NCBI RefSeq assembly: GCF_001677475.2
Contig: NZ_CP015229.1
Strand: one strand, 5' to 3'
Source of the DNA: Escherichia coli
Lineage (GTDB): Bacteria > Pseudomonadota > Gammaproteobacteria > Enterobacterales > Enterobacteriaceae
DNA: 64,000 nt
The notes under the pieces are model-generated. The model was not told the DNA's origin, did no database searches, and worked only from the letters and a program-made list of their open reading frames with translations. Shown in pieces: positions 10,927-57,257 of the stretch. The stretch's first letter is position 1; each line of letters begins with the position of its first letter. The translations under genes were made by a program, and so were the position numbers.

Positions 10927-10955
10927 AATCTAGCCAGCTCAACCCAACTTTGCAA
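10927..10955 (-). promoter_or_regulatory. Alpha-operon promoter (sigma70 type)
   Basis: Minus-strand TTGCAA (10950-10955), 17-nt spacer, TAGATT (10927-10932), about 100 nt upstream of the rpsM ATG. Confidence 0.6.
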
Positions 10956-10973
10956 GAAAAATATGCGAAAAAA

Positions 10974-12453
<1,480 letters not shown>

Positions 12454-49652: not shown

Positions 49653-51566
49653 ATGATTGTTTTCTCCTCGTTACAAATTCGTCGCGGCGTGCGCGTCCTG
49701 CTGGATAATGCCACCGCCACCATCAACCCCGGGCAGAAAGTCGGCCTGGTGGGTAAAAACGGCTGTGGTAAATCTACCCTGCTGGCATTGCTGAAAAATG
49801 AAATCAGCGCCGACGGCGGCAGCTACACCTTTCCGGGAAGCTGGCAACTGGCGTGGGTGAATCAGGAAACGCCGGCGTTACCGCAAGCGGCGCTGGAATA
49901 TGTCATTGACGGCGACCGTGAATATCGTCAACTGGAAGCGCAGCTGCACGACGCCAACGAACGTAACGACGGGCACGCCATTGCGACCATTCATGGCAAG
50001 CTGGATGCTATTGACGCATGGAGTATTCGCTCCCGTGCCGCCAGCCTGCTGCACGGCCTCGGTTTCAGCAATGAACAACTGGAGCGCCCGGTAAGTGATT
50101 TCTCCGGTGGCTGGCGTATGCGTCTTAACCTTGCCCAGGCGCTAATTTGCCGTTCAGACTTGCTGCTGCTCGACGAACCGACTAACCACCTCGATCTCGA
50201 TGCCGTTATCTGGCTGGAAAAATGGCTGAAGAGCTATCAGGGCACGCTGATCCTGATCTCTCACGACCGCGACTTCCTCGATCCGATCGTCGATAAAATT
50301 ATTCATATCGAACAACAAAGCATGTTCGAGTACACCGGCAACTACAGTTCGTTTGAAGTACAGCGCGCCACCCGTCTGGCGCAGCAACAAGCGATGTATG
50401 AAAGCCAGCAGGAACGCGTGGCACATCTGCAAAGTTATATCGATCGTTTCCGTGCCAAAGCCACCAAAGCGAAGCAGGCCCAGAGCCGCATTAAGATGCT
50501 GGAGCGTATGGAGCTGATTGCCCCCGCGCACGTCGACAATCCGTTCCGCTTTAGCTTCCGCGCGCCGGAAAGCCTGCCAAATCCGTTACTGAAGATGGAA
50601 AAGGTCAGCGCAGGCTATGGCGATCGCATTATTCTCGACTCGATTAAACTAAATCTGGTCCCCGGCTCGCGCATTGGTCTGCTAGGCCGCAACGGTGCGG
50701 GTAAATCGACATTAATCAAACTGTTAGCCGGTGAACTTGCGCCAGTCAGCGGTGAAATTGGTCTGGCGAAAGGGATCAAGCTCGGCTACTTCGCCCAGCA
50801 TCAACTGGAATACCTGCGCGCCGACGAATCGCCTATTCAACATCTGGCACGTTTAGCGCCGCAGGAGCTGGAGCAAAAACTGCGTGATTACCTCGGCGGC
50901 TTTGGTTTCCAGGGCGATAAAGTAACCGAAGAAACGCGCCGCTTTTCCGGTGGGGAAAAAGCCCGCCTGGTGCTGGCATTAATTGTCTGGCAGCGTCCGA
51001 ATCTGCTGCTGCTCGACGAACCGACTAACCACCTTGACCTCGACATGCGTCAGGCACTCACCGAAGCATTAATCGAGTTCGAAGGCGCGCTGGTTGTCGT
51101 CTCGCACGACCGTCATTTGCTGCGTTCCACCACTGACGATCTCTACCTGGTTCACGATCGTAAAGTCGAACCGTTCGACGGCGATCTGGAAGATTATCAA
51201 CAGTGGTTGAGCGACGTACAAAAGCAGGAAAACCAGACCGACGAAGCGCCAAAAGAGAACGCAAACAGCGCCCAGGCACGTAAAGATCAGAAGCGTCGGG
51301 AAGCGGAGCTGCGTGCGCAAACCCAACCGCTGCGTAAAGAGATCGCCCGTCTGGAAAAAGAGATGGAAAAGCTGAACGCACAGCTGGCGCAGGCGGAAGA
51401 GAAACTCGGCGACAGCGAACTGTATGACCAGAGCCGTAAAGCGGAGTTGACCGCCTGCCTGCAACAGCAAGCCAGCGCCAAATCCGGCCTGGAAGAGTGC
51501 GAAATGGCATGGCTGGAAGCCCAGGAGCAGCTTGAGCAGATGCTGCTGGAAGGCCAAAGCAACTGA
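49653..51566 (+). CDS. yheS: ABC-F family ATPase YheS (two tandem ABC cassettes, no membrane domain)
   Basis: 637-aa ORF with two Walker A (GKNGCGKST, GRNGAGKST), two signature and two Walker B motifs, and a charged coiled-coil C-terminus. Confidence 0.93.
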   Translation: MIVFSSLQIRRGVRVLLDNATATINPGQKVGLVGKNGCGKSTLLALLKNEISADGGSYTFPGSWQLAWVNQETPALPQAALEYVIDGDREYRQLEAQLHDANERNDGHAIATIHGKLDAIDAWSIRSRAASLLHGLGFSNEQLERPVSDFSGGWRMRLNLAQALICRSDLLLLDEPTNHLDLDAVIWLEKWLKSYQGTLILISHDRDFLDPIVDKIIHIEQQSMFEYTGNYSSFEVQRATRLAQQQAMYESQQERVAHLQSYIDRFRAKATKAKQAQSRIKMLERMELIAPAHVDNPFRFSFRAPESLPNPLLKMEKVSAGYGDRIILDSIKLNLVPGSRIGLLGRNGAGKSTLIKLLAGELAPVSGEIGLAKGIKLGYFAQHQLEYLRADESPIQHLARLAPQELEQKLRDYLGGFGFQGDKVTEETRRFSGGEKARLVLALIVWQRPNLLLLDEPTNHLDLDMRQALTEALIEFEGALVVVSHDRHLLRSTTDDLYLVHDRKVEPFDGDLEDYQQWLSDVQKQENQTDEAPKENANSAQARKDQKRREAELRAQTQPLRKEIARLEKEMEKLNAQLAQAEEKLGDSELYDQSRKAELTACLQQQASAKSGLEECEMAWLEAQEQLEQMLLEGQSN

Positions 51567-52588
51567 TGGCGCAGATAACGACGACCGAGGCCAATGAATT
51601 CAGCAGCAGCGCTGAATTCACCCCTATGCGCGGCTTTAGCAATTGTCATCTCCAAACCATGCTGCCGCGTCTGTTTCGTCGTCAGGTGAAATTCACCCCG
51701 TACTGGCAGCGACTGGAGTTGCCCGACGGCGATTTTGTCGATCTCGCGTGGAGTGAAGACCCTGCACAGGCGCGGCATAAACCGCGTTTAGTGGTGTTTC
51801 ACGGGCTGGAAGGCAGTCTCAATAGCCCTTACGCCCACGGTCTGGTTGAGGCGGCGCAAAAGCGCGGCTGGCTGGGCGTGGTGATGCATTTTCGCGGATG
51901 CAGCGGTGAACCAAACCGTATGCACCGCATTTACCATTCGGGCGAAACCGAAGACGCCAGCTGGTTTTTACGCTGGCTGCAACGCGAATTTGGTCATGCG
52001 CCAACGGCTGCCGTCGGCTATTCGCTCGGCGGTAATATGCTGGCCTGTTTGCTGGCAAAAGAAGGCAATGATCTCCCGGTTGATGCGGCGGTGATTGTCT
52101 CTGCGCCGTTTATGCTGGAAGCCTGTAGCTATCATATGGAAAAGGGCTTTTCCCGCGTTTATCAGCGTTACTTGCTGAACCTGTTAAAAGCCAATGCCGC
52201 GCGCAAGCTGGCAGCCTACCCCGGAACACTGCCGATTAATCTCGCGCAGTTAAAATCAGTACGTCGCATCCGTGAATTTGACGATCTAATCACCGCCAGA
52301 ATTCACGGCTACGCCGACGCTATCGACTATTATCGTCAGTGTAGCGCCATGCCGATGCTGAACCGGATCGCCAAACCGACGCTGATTATTCACGCCAAAG
52401 ACGATCCGTTTATGGATCATCAGGTGATCCCGAAACCGGAAAGTCTCCCCCCGCAGGTGGAGTATCAACTGACTGAACATGGCGGTCATGTTGGCTTTAT
52501 TGGCGGTACATTACTTCATCCGCAAATGTGGCTGGAGTCACGCATTCCTGACTGGTTAACAACGTATCTGGAGGCGAAATCATGTTGA
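51566..52588 (+). CDS. yheT: Putative alpha/beta-hydrolase YheT
   Basis: 340-aa ORF with hydrolase GxSxG-type motif (GYSLGG); start overlaps the yheS stop. Confidence 0.9.
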
Positions 52589-52800
52589 TTCCGTGGCAAG
52601 ACCTCTCCCCCGAAACGCTGGAAAATTTAATTGAAAGCTTTGTGTTACGTGAAGGCACCGATTATGGTGAACATGAGCGTACACTTGAACAGAAAGTCGC
52701 CGACGTCAAACGCCAGCTACAGTGCGGAGAAGCGGTGCTGGTATGGTCGGAGCTGCACGAAACGGTCAATATTATGCCGCGCAGTCAGTTTCGCGAATAG
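52582..52800 (+). CDS. yheU: UPF0270 protein YheU
   Basis: 72-aa ORF overlapping the yheT end by 7 nt. Confidence 0.85.
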
Positions 52801-52853
52801 CCTGCAACCGTCGGCGGACGAGATAATAATGATAGCTAAGTCATGGAGTTACT

Positions 52854-53723
52854 ATGTCTGCCAAACATCCGGTCATTGCGGTAACAGGATCCAGCGGCGC
52901 GGGGACCACCACCACCAGCCTCGCGTTTCGTAAAATATTCGCGCAGTTAAATCTGCATGCAGCTGAGGTGGAAGGCGACAGTTTTCACCGTTACACCCGC
53001 CCGGAAATGGACATGGCGATCCGCAAAGCGCGCGACGCCGGGCGGCATATCAGCTACTTCGGCCCCGAAGCGAACGACTTCGGCCTGCTGGAACAAACCT
53101 TCATTGAATACGGTCAGAGCGGCAAAGGGAAATCTCGCAAATATCTGCATACCTACGATGAAGCCGTACCGTGGAATCAGGTACCGGGGACATTCACCCC
53201 CTGGCAATCTTTACCGGAACCCACTGATGTACTGTTTTATGAAGGTTTACACGGCGGCGTAGTCACGCCACAGCATAACGTTGCGCAGCATGTGGACTTA
53301 CTGGTCGGCGTGGTGCCTATCGTTAACCTTGAGTGGATTCAAAAACTGATCCGCGACACCAGCGAGCGCGGGCACTCACGAGAAGCAGTGATGGACTCGG
53401 TAGTGCGTTCAATGGAAGACTATATCAACTACATCACGCCGCAGTTTTCCCGCACCCATCTTAACTTCCAGCGCGTTCCCACCGTCGACACCTCAAACCC
53501 GTTCGCGGCAAAAGGTATCCCGTCGCTGGATGAAAGCTTTGTGGTGATCCATTTTCGTAATCTGGAAGGGATCGATTTCCCCTGGCTGCTGGCGATGTTG
53601 CAAGGCTCATTCATTTCCCACATCAATACGTTAGTGGTGCCCGGCGGCAAAATGGGTCTGGCAATGGAATTAATTATGCTGCCGCTGGTGCAACGATTGA
53701 TGGAAGGAAAGAAAATCGAGTAA
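52854..53723 (+). CDS. prkB: Phosphoribulokinase homolog PrkB
   Basis: 289-aa ORF with P-loop GSSGAGTTT near the N-terminus. Confidence 0.92.
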   Translation: MSAKHPVIAVTGSSGAGTTTTSLAFRKIFAQLNLHAAEVEGDSFHRYTRPEMDMAIRKARDAGRHISYFGPEANDFGLLEQTFIEYGQSGKGKSRKYLHTYDEAVPWNQVPGTFTPWQSLPEPTDVLFYEGLHGGVVTPQHNVAQHVDLLVGVVPIVNLEWIQKLIRDTSERGHSREAVMDSVVRSMEDYINYITPQFSRTHLNFQRVPTVDTSNPFAAKGIPSLDESFVVIHFRNLEGIDFPWLLAMLQGSFISHINTLVVPGGKMGLAMELIMLPLVQRLMEGKKIE

Positions 53724-53735
53724 CTCTGCTATTAC

Positions 53736-53757
53736 GCCGGATAAAATACTATCCGGC
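53736..53757. terminator. Possible hairpin between convergent prkB and yhfA
   Basis: GCCGGAT-AAAATACT-ATCCGGC inverted repeat; no clear T-run. Confidence 0.35.
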
Positions 53758-53777
53758 TTCACAACGGGATAGTTAAA

Positions 53778-54182
53778 TCACGCGGCAACCACTTCATACG
53801 AGTGAGTAATATTCACCGCTTTTTCCAGCATCAACGCCACTGAACAATATTTCTCAGCAGAGAGATCAACCGCACGCGCAACCGCTGCGTCTTTCAGGTC
53901 GCGACCGGTGACGATAAAATGCAGATTAATGTGCGTAAACAGGCGTGGTGCATCTTCGCGGCGTTCAGAGGTCAATTTTACTTCACAATCGACCACATCC
54001 TGACGCCCTTTTTGCAAGATCGAAACCACATCGATGGCACTGCAACCACCCGCCGCCATCAACACCATTTCCATCGGACTTGGTGCTTTATCGCCTGAGT
54101 TGCCGTCCATTAAAATCTGGTGACCAGAGGCGGATTCGCCCAGAAAAGTTAACCCTTCGACCCACTTCACTCGCGCTTGCAT
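53778..54182 (-). CDS. yhfA: OsmC-family protein YhfA
   Basis: 134-aa ORF in conserved position upstream of crp on the opposite strand. Confidence 0.88.
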   Translation of the reverse strand: MQARVKWVEGLTFLGESASGHQILMDGNSGDKAPSPMEMVLMAAGGCSAIDVVSILQKGRQDVVDCEVKLTSERREDAPRLFTHINLHFIVTGRDLKDAAVARAVDLSAEKYCSVALMLEKAVNITHSYEVVAA

Positions 54183-54483
54183 TTTTGCTACTCCACTGCG
54201 TCAATTTTCCTGACAGAGTACGCGTACTAACCAAATCGCGCAACGGAAGGCGACCTGGGTCATGCTGAAGCGAGACACCAGGAGACACAAAGCGAAAGCT
54301 ATGCTAAAACAGTCAGGATGCTACAGTAATACATTGATGTACTGCATGTATGCAAAGGACGTCACATTACCGTGCAGTACAGTTGATAGCCCCTTCCCAG
54401 GTAGCGGGAAGCATATTTCGGCAATCCAGAGACAGCGGCGTTATCTGGCTCTGGAGAAAGCTTATAACAGAGGATAACCGCGC

Positions 54484-55116
54484 ATGGTGCTTGGCAAACC
54501 GCAAACAGACCCGACTCTCGAATGGTTCTTGTCTCATTGCCACATTCATAAGTACCCATCCAAGAGCACGCTTATTCACCAGGGTGAAAAAGCGGAAACG
54601 CTGTACTACATCGTTAAAGGCTCTGTGGCAGTGCTGATCAAAGACGAAGAGGGTAAAGAAATGATCCTCTCCTATCTGAATCAGGGTGATTTTATTGGCG
54701 AACTGGGCCTGTTTGAAGAGGGCCAGGAACGTAGCGCATGGGTACGTGCGAAAACCGCCTGTGAAGTGGCTGAAATTTCGTACAAAAAATTTCGCCAATT
54801 GATTCAGGTAAACCCGGACATTCTGATGCGTCTGTCTGCACAGATGGCGCGTCGTCTGCAAGTCACTTCAGAGAAAGTGGGCAACCTGGCGTTCCTCGAC
54901 GTGACGGGCCGCATTGCACAGACTCTGCTGAACCTGGCAAAACAACCAGATGCTATGACTCACCCGGACGGTATGCAAATCAAAATTACCCGTCAGGAAA
55001 TTGGTCAGATTGTCGGCTGTTCTCGTGAAACCGTGGGACGCATTCTGAAGATGCTGGAAGATCAGAACCTGATCTCTGCACACGGTAAAACCATCGTCGT
55101 TTACGGCACTCGTTAA
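54484..55116 (+). CDS. crp: cAMP receptor protein CRP
   Basis: 210-aa [109 protein letters not shown]... with C-terminal [23 protein letters not shown]. Confidence 0.98.
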
Positions 55117-55128
55117 TCCCGTCGGAGT

Positions 55129-55162
55129 GGCGCGTTACCTGGTAGCGCGCCATTTTGTTTCC
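55129..55162 (+). terminator. Intrinsic terminator after crp
   Basis: GC-rich hairpin GGCGCGTTACC / GGTAGCGCGCC 13 nt after the crp stop, followed by ATTTTGTTT. Confidence 0.7.
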
Positions 55163-55166
55163 CCCG

Positions 55167-57257
55167 ATGTGGCGCAGACTGATTTATCACCCCGATATCA
55201 ACTATGCACTGCGACAAACGCTGGTGCTATGTTTGCCCGTGGCCGTTGGGTTAATGCTTGGCGAATTGCGATTCGGTCTGCTCTTCTCCCTCGTTCCTGC
55301 CTGTTGCAATATTGCGGGCCTTGATACGCCTCATAAACGTTTTTTCAAACGCTTAATCATTGGTGCGTCGCTGTTTGCCACCTGTAGCTTACTGACACAG
55401 CTGCTACTGGCAAAAGATGTTCCCCTGCCCTTTTTGCTGACCGGATTAACGCTGGTACTTGGCGTCACTGCTGAGCTGGGGCCATTGCACGCAAAATTGC
55501 TTCCCGCATCCCTGCTCGCCGCCATTTTTACCCTCAGTCTGGCGGGATACATGCCGGTCTGGGAACCGTTGCTCATCTATGCGTTGGGCACTCTCTGGTA
55601 CGGATTGTTTAACTGGTTTTGGTTCTGGATCTGGCGCGAACAACCGCTGCGCGAGTCACTTAGCCTGCTGTACCGTGAACTGGCAGATTATTGTGAAGCC
55701 AAATACAGCCTGCTTACCCAGCACACCGACCCTGAAAAAGCGCTGCCGCCACTGCTGGTGCGCCAGCAAAAAGCGGTCGATCTAATTACCCAGTGCTATC
55801 AGCAAATGCATATGCTTTCCGCGCAAAATAATACTGACTACAAGCGGATGCTGCGTATTTTCCAGGAGGCGCTGGATTTACAGGAACATATTTCGGTCAG
55901 TTTGCATCAGCCGGAAGAGGTGCAAAAGCTGGTCGAGCGTAGCCATGCGGAAGAAGTTATCCGCTGGAATGCGCAAACCGTCGCCGCTCGCCTGCGCGTG
56001 CTGGCTGATGACATTCTTTACCATCGCCTGCCAACGCGTTTTACGATGGAAAAGCAAATTGGCGCGCTGGAAAAAATCGCCCGCCAGCATCCGGATAATC
56101 CGGTTGGGCAATTCTGCTACTGGCATTTCAGCCGCATCGCCCGCGTGCTGCGCACCCAAAAACCGCTCTATGCCCGTGACTTACTGGCCGATAAACAGCG
56201 GCGAATGCCATTACTTCCGGCGCTGAAAAGTTATCTGTCACTAAAGTCTCCGGCGCTACGCAATGCCGGACGACTCAGTGTGATGTTAAGCGTTGCCAGC
56301 CTGATGGGCACCGCGCTGCATCTGCCGAAGTCGTACTGGATCCTGATGACGGTATTGCTGGTGACGCAAAATGGCTATGGCGCAACCCGTCTGAGGATTG
56401 TGAATCGCTCCGTGGGAACCGTGGTCGGGTTAATCATTGCGGGCGTTGCCCTGCACTTTAAAATTCCCGAAGGTTACACCCTGACCTTGATGCTGATTAC
56501 CACCCTCGCCAGCTACCTGATATTGCGCAAAAACTACGGCTGGGCGACGGTCGGCTTTACCATTACCGCAGTGTATACCCTGCAACTGTTGTGGCTGAAC
56601 GGTGAGCAGTACATCCTTCCGCGTCTTATCGATACCATTATTGGCTGTTTAATTGCTTTCGGCGGTACCGTCTGGCTGTGGCCACAGTGGCAGAGCGGGT
56701 TATTGCGTAAAAACGCCCATGATGCTTTAGAAGCCTATCAGGAAGCGATTCGCTTGATTCTGAGCGAGGACCCGCAACCAACGCCACTGGCCTGGCAGAG
56801 AATGCGGGTAAATCAGGCGCATAACACTCTGTATAACTCATTGAATCAGGCGATGCAGGAACCGGCATTCAACAGCCATTATCTGGCAGATATGAAACTG
56901 TGGGTAACGCACAGTCAGTTTATTGTTGAACATATTAATGCCATGACCACGCTGGCACGGGAACACCGGGCATTGCCACCTGAACTGGCACAAGAGTATT
57001 TACAGTCTTGTGAAATCGCCATTCAGCGTTGTCAGCAGCGACTGGAGTATGACGAACCGGGGAGTTCTGGCGATGCCAATATCATGGATGCGCCGGAGAT
57101 GCAGCCGCACGAAGGCGCGGCAGGTACGCTGGAGCAGCATTTACAACGGGTTATTGGTCATCTGAACACCATGCACACCATTTCGTCGATGGCATGGCGG
57201 CAGCGACCGCATCACGGGATTTGGCTGAGTCGCAAGTTGCGGGATTCGAAGGCGTAA
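55167..57257 (+). CDS. yhfK: Inner-membrane protein YhfK (FUSC-like)
   Basis: 696 codons from ATG 55167 (MWRRLIYHPDINYALRQ...); the ORF-track start at 55155 is a TTG lying inside the crp terminator hairpin. Confidence 0.88.
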   Translation: MWRRLIYHPDINYALRQTLVLCLPVAVGLMLGELRFGLLFSLVPACCNIAGLDTPHKRFFKRLIIGASLFATCSLLTQLLLAKDVPLPFLLTGLTLVLGVTAELGPLHAKLLPASLLAAIFTLSLAGYMPVWEPLLIYALGTLWYGLFNWFWFWIWREQPLRESLSLLYRELADYCEAKYSLLTQHTDPEKALPPLLVRQQKAVDLITQCYQQMHMLSAQNNTDYKRMLRIFQEALDLQEHISVSLHQPEEVQKLVERSHAEEVIRWNAQTVAARLRVLADDILYHRLPTRFTMEKQIGALEKIARQHPDNPVGQFCYWHFSRIARVLRTQKPLYARDLLADKQRRMPLLPALKSYLSLKSPALRNAGRLSVMLSVASLMGTALHLPKSYWILMTVLLVTQNGYGATRLRIVNRSVGTVVGLIIAGVALHFKIPEGYTLTLMLITTLASYLILRKNYGWATVGFTITAVYTLQLLWLNGEQYILPRLIDTIIGCLIAFGGTVWLWPQWQSGLLRKNAHDALEAYQEAIRLILSEDPQPTPLAWQRMRVNQAHNTLYNSLNQAMQEPAFNSHYLADMKLWVTHSQFIVEHINAMTTLAREHRALPPELAQEYLQSCEIAIQRCQQRLEYDEPGSSGDANIMDAPEMQPHEGAAGTLEQHLQRVIGHLNTMHTISSMAWRQRPHHGIWLSRKLRDSKA

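Follow-up and report, generated by a model that had tools for sequence, protein, structure and literature searches.

Organization of the prkB locus

The subject of this analysis is prkB, a gene for a homologue of phosphoribulokinase (PRK), together with its neighbors in a 64,000-nucleotide stretch of the Escherichia coli chromosome (contig NZ_CP015229.1). We refer to this whole stretch as the window and use its numbering throughout. The prkB gene (52854–53723, + strand) encodes a bacterial-type PRK homologue of 289 amino acids, which matches the families PF00485 and NF011997. It follows three genes on the same strand. The first, yheS (49653–51566), encodes an ABC-F ATPase that was recognized by the NCBIfam model NF007921 with 1407 bits and by two ABC_tran domains and one ABC_tran_Xtn domain of Pfam. 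The second, yheT (51566–52588), encodes an alpha/beta-hydrolase of 340 amino acids (PF00561 and NF008218), and the third, yheU (52582–52800), a small UPF0270 protein of 72 amino acids (PF06794 and NF003438). The stop codon of yheS has one base in common with the ATG of yheT, which gives a 1-nt overlap; yheT and yheU overlap by 7 nt (letters ATGTTGA), and a spacer of 53 nt (52801–52853, + strand) lies between yheU and prkB. A GGAGG ribosome-binding site is located at 52570–52574 ahead of yheU, and the translation of YheU appears to be coupled to that of yheT. An earlier note on this DNA had pointed to the P-loop GSSGAGTTT of PrkB, to the adjacency of yheT and yheU, to their 7-nt overlap and to the location of the group after yheS; all of these features were found where it had placed them. 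The same note proposed the three genes as a candidate for a small-molecule phosphorylation or salvage function, a proposal that we consider below.

Of 5426 complete E. coli genomes, 5425 contain the segment from 51400 to 53900, with a best identity of 99.1%, and all 5425 copies are annotated with yheS, yheT, yheU, prkB and yhfA. Identity of at least 99% was seen in only 426 of these 5425 genomes, the remainder ranging from 95 to 99%, and the YheT protein of the window is only 96% identical to that of the E. coli genome included in our species scan (locus L006). At the yheS–prkB locus, the window thus has an allele, or belongs to a lineage, that is less common.

Family assignment of PrkB and the orphan clade

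To place PrkB, we compared it with profile models and with a PRK of known structure. PrkB matched PF00485 (PRK) with an E value of 1.8e-76 (256.8 bits; cut-off 22). Its match to the NCBIfam phosphoribulokinase equivalog NF011997 scored 523.9 bits, the cut-off being 362, over residues 1–288 of 290, while uridine-kinase models scored it far under their cut-off (27.8 versus 180). An end-to-end alignment with the PRK of Rhodobacter sphaeroides (PDB 1A7J) gave 50% identity with an E value of 5.7e-94.

We then used a PRK alignment to search the GTDB species, each represented by a single genome, and retained the best 80 loci, whose products are 67–99% identical to the PrkB of the window; the lower boundary of the group lies outside these best 80 loci. 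They comprise 37 loci from Enterobacterales, 3 from the Aeromonas group, 16 from Vibrionales and 24 that we call Alteromonadales-like, the last set including Idiomarina, Pseudidiomarina, Aliidiomarina, Pseudoalteromonas, Colwellia, Rheinheimera, Alishewanella and Arsukibacterium. No RuBisCO gene was present within 10 kb of prkB in any of the 80 loci. RefSeq likewise annotates no RuBisCO or other cbb-specific gene in the collinear part of E. coli, which extends from acrF across the ribosomal-protein operons as far as tsgA. These results bear out the statement of the earlier note that a PRK homologue is encoded here with no Calvin-cycle partner. Pairwise identity inside the orphan set is at least 63% (63–99%), and identity to any comparison PRK is at most 58%. 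Among relatives at 51–54% identity to PrkB, the PRK gene lies in a cbb operon or adjoins RuBisCO in two cases (P0007 and P0008), and no RuBisCO was found within 6 kb of the PRK gene in two others (P0006 and P0012). The Calvin-type comparison PRKs were chosen with a library search at 50% clustering, which collapsed the whole clade and returned mostly fragments; a separate listing of homologues covered Enterobacterales only, at identities of at least 82%. These comparisons suggest that PrkB is a member of an orphan PRK clade, and the syntenic positions of its genes (see below) point to vertical descent.

The existence of this clade bears on published statements. A 2023 review (PMC9978339) describes PRK as confined to phototrophs and methanogens, and a 2026 preprint (bioRxiv 10.64898/2026.03.18.712719) takes a PRK homologue as a marker of an active Calvin-Benson-Bassham (CBB) cycle. 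The orphan clade contradicts the former statement and weakens the latter inference. A PRK homologue alone is not evidence of a Calvin cycle, and annotation should be made with this caution.

Active site of PrkB

The roles of the catalytic-base Asp and of the P-loop of PRK have been described (PMC9978339). In PrkB, the P-loop occupies residues 12–20 (52887–52913), and the codon of Asp42 is at 52977–52979, within the motif D42-S-F-H45, which follows the pattern D-x-[FY]-H. PrkB and the R. sphaeroides enzyme have in common the P-loop and, in R. sphaeroides numbering, Asp42, His45, Arg49, Glu131, Lys165, Arg168, Asp169 and Arg173. In an alignment of 81 PrkB orthologues from four orders, the corresponding positions of PrkB (G12–T18, D42, H45, R49, E130, K164, R167, D168 and R172) are invariant, and invariant positions number 111 of 289 in total. 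We take these conserved residues to act in the R. sphaeroides enzyme as catalytic base, as ligands of MgATP and in the binding of D-ribulose 5-phosphate (Ru5P). The residue roles in that enzyme reportedly come from mutagenesis in the Miziorko laboratory and from the 1998 structure of Harrison. Because the catalytic Asp and the presumed Ru5P-binding residues are kept without exception across four orders, Ru5P or a very close analogue is expected to be the substrate of PrkB. The statement of the earlier note that the substrate is not evident was therefore too strong.

The residues that we presume to control the enzyme gave a different result. In R. sphaeroides PRK, we take R31, R234 and R257 to form the NADH allosteric site and Arg187 to be the lid arginine. 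At these positions, PrkB has Gln31, His233, His256 and Ser186, respectively. Position 31 is never Arg in the orphan clade and Ser186 is invariant in it, so that neither the NADH site nor the lid arginine is retained. Positions 233 and 256 are variable in the clade, and the comparison PRKs mostly have Arg there. This pattern predicts that the chemistry of PrkB is retained and that its regulation, and possibly its handling of the phosphoryl donor, differs.

Selection on the genes

Pairwise ratios of nonsynonymous to synonymous substitution rates (dN/dS) were calculated between the window genes and those of nine other Enterobacterales. Because dS was partly saturated, only the ranking of the values is trustworthy: prkB gave the lowest values (0.02–0.04), followed by yheS (0.04–0.08), yheU (0.06–0.12) and yheT (0.06–0.14). 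Protein identities to Vibrionales were about 74% for PrkB, 66% for YheS, 62% for YhfA, 60% for YheU, 58% for KefB and 50% for YheT, and within this gene set only Crp was better conserved than PrkB. The purifying selection shows that yheT, yheU and prkB, all of which had been annotated before, are real genes rather than chance open reading frames (ORFs). A PRK homologue has also been seen at the protein level in Salmonella proteomics (PMC4507180). With a dN/dS of 0.02–0.04, prkB looks neither like a decaying relic nor like a gene whose product is likely to be inactive.

Conservation of the neighborhood

To judge whether prkB, yheT and yheU behave as a unit, we recorded their neighbors within 10 kb of prkB in the 80 loci. 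We included yhfA (53778–54182, − strand), a gene for an OsmC-family protein that was identified as an ORF with a profile match and that converges with prkB. In the 37 Enterobacterales loci, yheT was present in 34, yheU in 36 and yhfA in 35; in the 16 Vibrionales loci, the corresponding numbers were 15, 16 and 5, and all three genes were present in each of the 3 Aeromonas-group loci. In the 24 Alteromonadales-like loci, yheT was found in 3, yheU in 2 and yhfA in 14. Where they occur, yheT and yheU lie upstream of prkB on the same strand, with yheU–prkB gaps mostly of 18–170 nt, and the overlap of 7 or 8 nt between yheT and yheU is retained in most Enterobacterales. In 21 of the 24 Alteromonadales-like loci, prkB is kept and yheT and yheU are missing. 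These genomes usually have prkB alone or with a convergent yhfA, which is the neighbor most often kept with prkB outside Enterobacterales. Within 10 kb of prkB, the linkage is kept in three orders and mostly lost in the Alteromonadales-like set.

The adjacency has to be seen against a longer background of conserved gene order. Gene-cluster maps showed a syntenic backbone that runs fkpA-slyX-slyD, kefGB, yheS, yheT, yheU, prkB, yhfA, crp, (astA/astD), argD, pabA. In the window, it includes kefB (47166–48971) and kefG (48971–49525), both on the − strand of the ORF table, and crp (54484–55116, + strand); the ORF table lists yhfK and argD beyond crp. Without exception, crp adjoins prkB/yhfA in the loci of Enterobacterales (37), Vibrionales (16) and the Aeromonas group (3), and Price et al. 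(2008) regarded yheT as a neighbor of crp that is conserved but has no functional relation to it. Because the yheT-yheU-prkB adjacency lies inside this much longer backbone, it carries little functional information. Elsewhere the backbone is remodeled around prkB: loci of the Idiomarina type have the order slyX-prkB-(rlmJ)-yhfA-astD-astA-argD-pabA, with kefGB, yheSTU and crp not at the site, and in Colwellia rplQ is followed directly by prkB. Within Enterobacterales, yheU and prkB are separated by inserted DNA of 9.2 kb in Erwinia endophytica (L019) and by an insertion of 2 kb in Hafnia paralvei (L025); in Rahnella inusitata (L030), yheTU does not occur within 10 kb of prkB. The YheU genes of Pseudomonas and Stutzerimonas have no YheT or PRK neighbor within 8 kb.

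The junction with yheS is less widely kept. The description of the group as directly downstream of yheS holds for the window, but only the two Escherichia loci (−1 nt) and, nearly so, two Photobacterium loci (19–21 nt) have a tight yheS–yheT junction. Elsewhere the two genes are parted by an opposite-strand gene for a LysE exporter or, in Vibrio, by a DUF2390 gene. We also observed that this junction is a hotspot of insertion in other Enterobacteriaceae, with inserted DNA between the genes in L008, L018 and L064 and upstream of yheT in L009–L017. One island between yheS and yheT was read as NadV (NAMPT)-Prs-Nudix, with Pfam support for NadV only, and another as malonate decarboxylase (mdc) genes, a reading made from the sequence with no profile confirmation.

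In five Pseudoalteromonas loci (L074, L075, L077, L080 and L084), the genes that come after prkB on its strand, at about 10950–12200 of the loci, encode a YjjX-type NTPase (PF01931) and a YjjG-like HAD hydrolase. This nucleotide "house-cleaning" pair was seen in this genus only.

Overall, yheT, yheU and prkB are co-directional and tightly spaced with no intervening terminator, as expected of an operon, and their linkage across distant lineages does not appear to go beyond general synteny. A three-gene functional module is weakly supported by these data. The neighborhood argument for a prkB-yheT-yheU pathway is correspondingly weak and should not guide annotation. A role in anti-phage defense was also considered and rejected, as PADLOC returned no match for YheT, YheU, PrkB or YhfA.

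Transcription signals

The spacer between yheU and prkB contains a Shine-Dalgarno sequence, GGAG, at 52845–52848 and a −10-like hexamer, GATAAT, at 52822–52827. No terminator was found between the two genes in our scan, and the spacer folds no better than shuffled sequences (z +0.59). Promoter and terminator scans gave no more hits than the shuffled expectation, with nothing convincing between yheU and prkB. When the spacers of Enterobacteriaceae were aligned, the GGAG ribosome-binding site alone was conserved; a TATAAT/TATACT-like box is present 25–35 nt before the prkB ATG in many species, and others have a spacer of only 26–37 nt. A preprint (bioRxiv 10.1101/2023.06.11.543863) describes yheS-yheT-yheU as a co-transcribed operon with yheS first and counts prkB among the downstream co-cistronic genes. 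Judged from these signals, transcripts of prkB probably arise in two ways, in part from read-through out of yheSTU and in part from a weak promoter belonging to prkB itself.

Control of prkB by CRP was rejected. The only consensus-like site nearby, at 52527–52542, has 2 mismatches and lies about 310 bp upstream inside yheT, and window-wide the number of CRP-like sites is at chance level (30 observed versus 28 expected). A riboswitch or known RNA was likewise not found, as there was no Rfam match at E ≤ 1 in 49000–55500.

A hairpin is located between prkB and yhfA at 53736–53757, with no strand assigned to it; it was recognized from the sequence and from fold z-scores. It has the form GCCGGATA-N6-TATCCGGC without a U-tract, with fold z-scores of −4.2 (+ strand) and −4.9 (− strand), and is possibly a weak bidirectional terminator. 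Because this hairpin of the convergent gap (53724–53777) has no U-tract, antisense transcripts could plausibly cross the gap and enter prkB. An antisense RNA named "prkB-as", which carries a TadA-dependent A-to-I edit, is reported in a 2026 mBio paper. We looked for the corresponding TadA site and found no tRNA-Arg2-like TACG loop with a stem of at least 3 bp in 52800–53800 on either strand.

Beyond yhfA, an ORF of 71 amino acids at 54262–54477 (+ strand) occupies the yhfA–crp intergenic region and recurs in the Escherichia loci L005 and L006 (cluster c113). It overlaps the promoter and 5′ region of crp and is probably not a gene.

YheT and YheU

YheT matched PF00561 with an E value of 1.4e-41 and NF008218 with 648 bits (cut-off 267). 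Its predicted catalytic triad consists of Ser153 in the motif GYSLG (52022–52024), Asp280 (52403–52405) and His308 (52487–52489), and all three residues are invariant in a 19-sequence YheT alignment (A2). The AlphaFold (AF2) model of YheT has a mean predicted local distance difference test score (pLDDT) of 89.6 and a predicted template modeling score (pTM) of 0.89, with residues 1–15 disordered. A sequence search of the PDB with YheT gave no match at E < 1e-3. YheT is grouped with ABHD1-3 and with yeast Eht1/Eeb1. The model and its structural neighbors, which are described below, suggest an esterase that would act on hydrophobic esters; they give no hint of sugar-phosphate chemistry. The first 14 or so residues of YheT are conserved in close relatives only, and the family model and the distant orthologues begin at about residues 15–18. 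For this reason the start codon of YheT, and hence its 1-nt overlap with yheS, is less certain than the other boundaries of the locus (residues 1–20 correspond to 51566–51625). YheU matched PF06794 (UPF0270) with an E value of 1.1e-35 and 122 bits (cut-off 25.6) and NF003438 with 146.6 bits (cut-off 86).

A probably competent orphan kinase in a conserved neighborhood

From these results, we consider it probable that PrkB is a competent PRK of the orphan clade, namely a Ru5P kinase with altered regulation, and that its adjacency to yheTU reflects backbone synteny rather than a pathway. In the reaction that we envisage, MgATP bound by the P-loop would phosphorylate the C1 hydroxyl of Ru5P, or of a ketose phosphate very similar to it; Asp42 would serve as the base, and the product would be ribulose 1,5-bisphosphate (RuBP). 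The regulation of PrkB would probably be unlike that of the NADH-activated enzymes of the Calvin cycle. The gene would adjoin yheT-yheU, which in Escherichia come right after yheS, by way of an old stretch of chromosome extending from fkpA-slyX-slyD to argD-pabA; its co-transcription with yheSTU would be incidental, with no dedicated three-step pathway. Gene identities, the conservation of residues, purifying selection and the patterns of synteny are direct results of this analysis, from which the activity and substrate of the enzyme, the pattern of transcription and the lack of functional coupling are inferred. With a lower probability, orphan PrkB may make RuBP or a related ketose bisphosphate for an undescribed, RuBisCO-independent purpose, under a control that, because residues 31, 186, 233 and 256 are altered, would be unlike that of NADH-activated enzymes. 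Such a purpose may be that of a regulatory metabolite or of an entry into a pentose-bisphosphate route.

Several observations weigh against our main interpretation. Ser186 is invariant in the clade and 8 of 10 comparison PRKs have Arg at this position, and the orphan clade has Tyr68 in place of the His of the comparison PRKs; together with the change at position 31, these clade-specific substitutions may reflect a change of substrate, of phosphoryl donor or of regulation. The order yheT-yheU-prkB, with short gaps, is found in 52–55 of the 56 loci of the three orders. This exceeds the expectation for unrelated genes in a freely rearranged backbone and leaves room for some functional or regulatory coupling, and the absence of yheT and yheU from Alteromonadales-like genomes covers the 10 kb around prkB. 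We found no enzymology for E. coli PrkB in the open-access literature. Finally, engineered CO2-fixing E. coli reportedly needs a heterologous PRK. If so, the amount of RuBP made by the native PrkB in laboratory culture is small, and such a low native flux suggests condition-specific expression or a low activity of PrkB, which is the main uncertainty of our interpretation.

Other explanations were weighed as well. In one, PrkB is active but its substrate, phosphoryl donor or control has shifted from the classical ATP:Ru5P reaction, possibly to another ketose phosphate; alternatively, PrkB might make a bisphosphate with a regulatory role, or one that takes up overflow from the pentose-phosphate pool. 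The invariant Ser186 in place of Arg, Tyr68 in place of His, the non-basic residue at position 31 and the variable positions 233 and 256 are all consistent with such a shift, as is the lack of a RuBisCO to consume RuBP within 10 kb of prkB in the 80 loci. The strong purifying selection implies a real function, and the same-strand NTPase and HAD phosphatase that follow prkB in Pseudoalteromonas also count in favor of this explanation, although that arrangement was seen in one genus only. Yet the residues that we take to contact Ru5P in the R. sphaeroides enzyme are all invariant, and PrkB is 50% identical to this bona fide PRK and matches the NCBI equivalog model above its cut-off, which makes a shift of this kind rather doubtful. 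At the other extreme, prkB could be a non-functional relic, or encode a catalytically dead pseudo-enzyme, from an autotrophic ancestor. The absence of RuBisCO from the genome neighborhood and of a phenotype or activity from the open-access literature would agree with this idea, but the reading frame is uninterrupted in essentially every E. coli genome as well as in 80 species from four orders, dN/dS is 0.02–0.04, the 111 invariant positions of 289 include the entire catalytic apparatus, and the protein was detected in Salmonella. On these conservation data a relic appears close to refuted, and we regard it as very improbable.

The proposal of the earlier note, in which prkB, yheT and yheU, possibly with yheS, form one unit whose kinase, hydrolase and accessory protein act on the same small molecule in salvage or phosphorylation, draws on the same-strand arrangement, the 7-nt overlap, the 53-nt gap without a predicted terminator and the preprint that treats prkB as co-cistronic downstream of yheS. 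The order is also kept in 34–36 of 37 Enterobacterales, 15–16 of 16 Vibrionales and 3 of 3 Aeromonas-group loci. What argues against it is that 21 of the 24 Alteromonadales-like loci keep prkB with all its catalytic residues and have no yheT or yheU within 10 kb, that YheU occurs in Pseudomonas and Stutzerimonas with neither YheT nor PRK as a neighbor, and that insertions disrupt the linkage in Erwinia endophytica and Hafnia paralvei, with no such linkage in Rahnella inusitata. Furthermore, the adjacency sits within a much longer syntenic backbone, whose crp gene Price et al. (2008) already considered functionally unrelated to yheT; selective constraint differs strongly among the genes; and the fold of YheT is closest to lipid and aryl esterases. 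We conclude that a single functional unit is unlikely.

The locus itself is textbook E. coli annotation and was already known, and a PRK without RuBisCO is a genuine, long-recognized and modest question. Its interest lies in the presence of a bona fide-looking PRK under tight selection in many gammaproteobacteria that lack RuBisCO, including essentially every E. coli genome. In the open-access literature we found no study of the role of orphan PrkB and, beyond the one operon statement, no phenotype or transcript map for prkB, yheT or yheU of E. coli. For engineering, it should be kept in mind that E. coli strains made to fix CO2 already have a PRK-like gene of their own, which may or may not contribute.

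Comparison with known systems

The nearest solved folds to the YheT model are monoglyceride lipases (MGLs), namely Rv0183 (6EIC), yeast and human MGL and human ABHD6 (7OTS), and aryl esterases such as the P. fluorescens esterase. The Foldseek probability of these matches is 1.0, but identity is only about 15% and the TM-score about 0.5. Like the hydrolases of the monoacylglycerol-lipase and aryl-esterase types, YheT has an alpha/beta core, a helical cap, a GxSxG elbow and the Asp and His in the expected order; unlike them, it belongs to a family of its own, NCBIfam NF008218. YheU resembles PA3463 of Pseudomonas aeruginosa (PDB 1Y0N), a structural-genomics protein, with an E value of 5.5e-9, and both match PF06794 over their full length. 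The UPF0270 gene of Pseudomonas and Stutzerimonas stands away from YheT and PRK genes, unlike yheU.

PrkB and the R. sphaeroides PRK are nearly equal in size, with 289 and 290 amino acids, respectively. The likeness in the active site extends to a more distant enzyme: D42, H45 and R49 of PrkB line up with the motif DDYHRYDR in a cyanobacterial PRK, following the pattern D-x-[FY]-H-R-x-x-R. A further difference lies in the genomic setting. The R. sphaeroides-type PRK is the bacterial octameric type of cbb operons, whereas prkB stands apart from genes for RuBisCO, FBPase, transketolase and aldolase. Two of the relatives of PrkB illustrate the classical arrangement: the PRK gene of P0007 is part of a cbbR-FBPase-PRK-transketolase-aldolase-RuBisCO operon and that of P0008 adjoins a form II RuBisCO, both unlike prkB.

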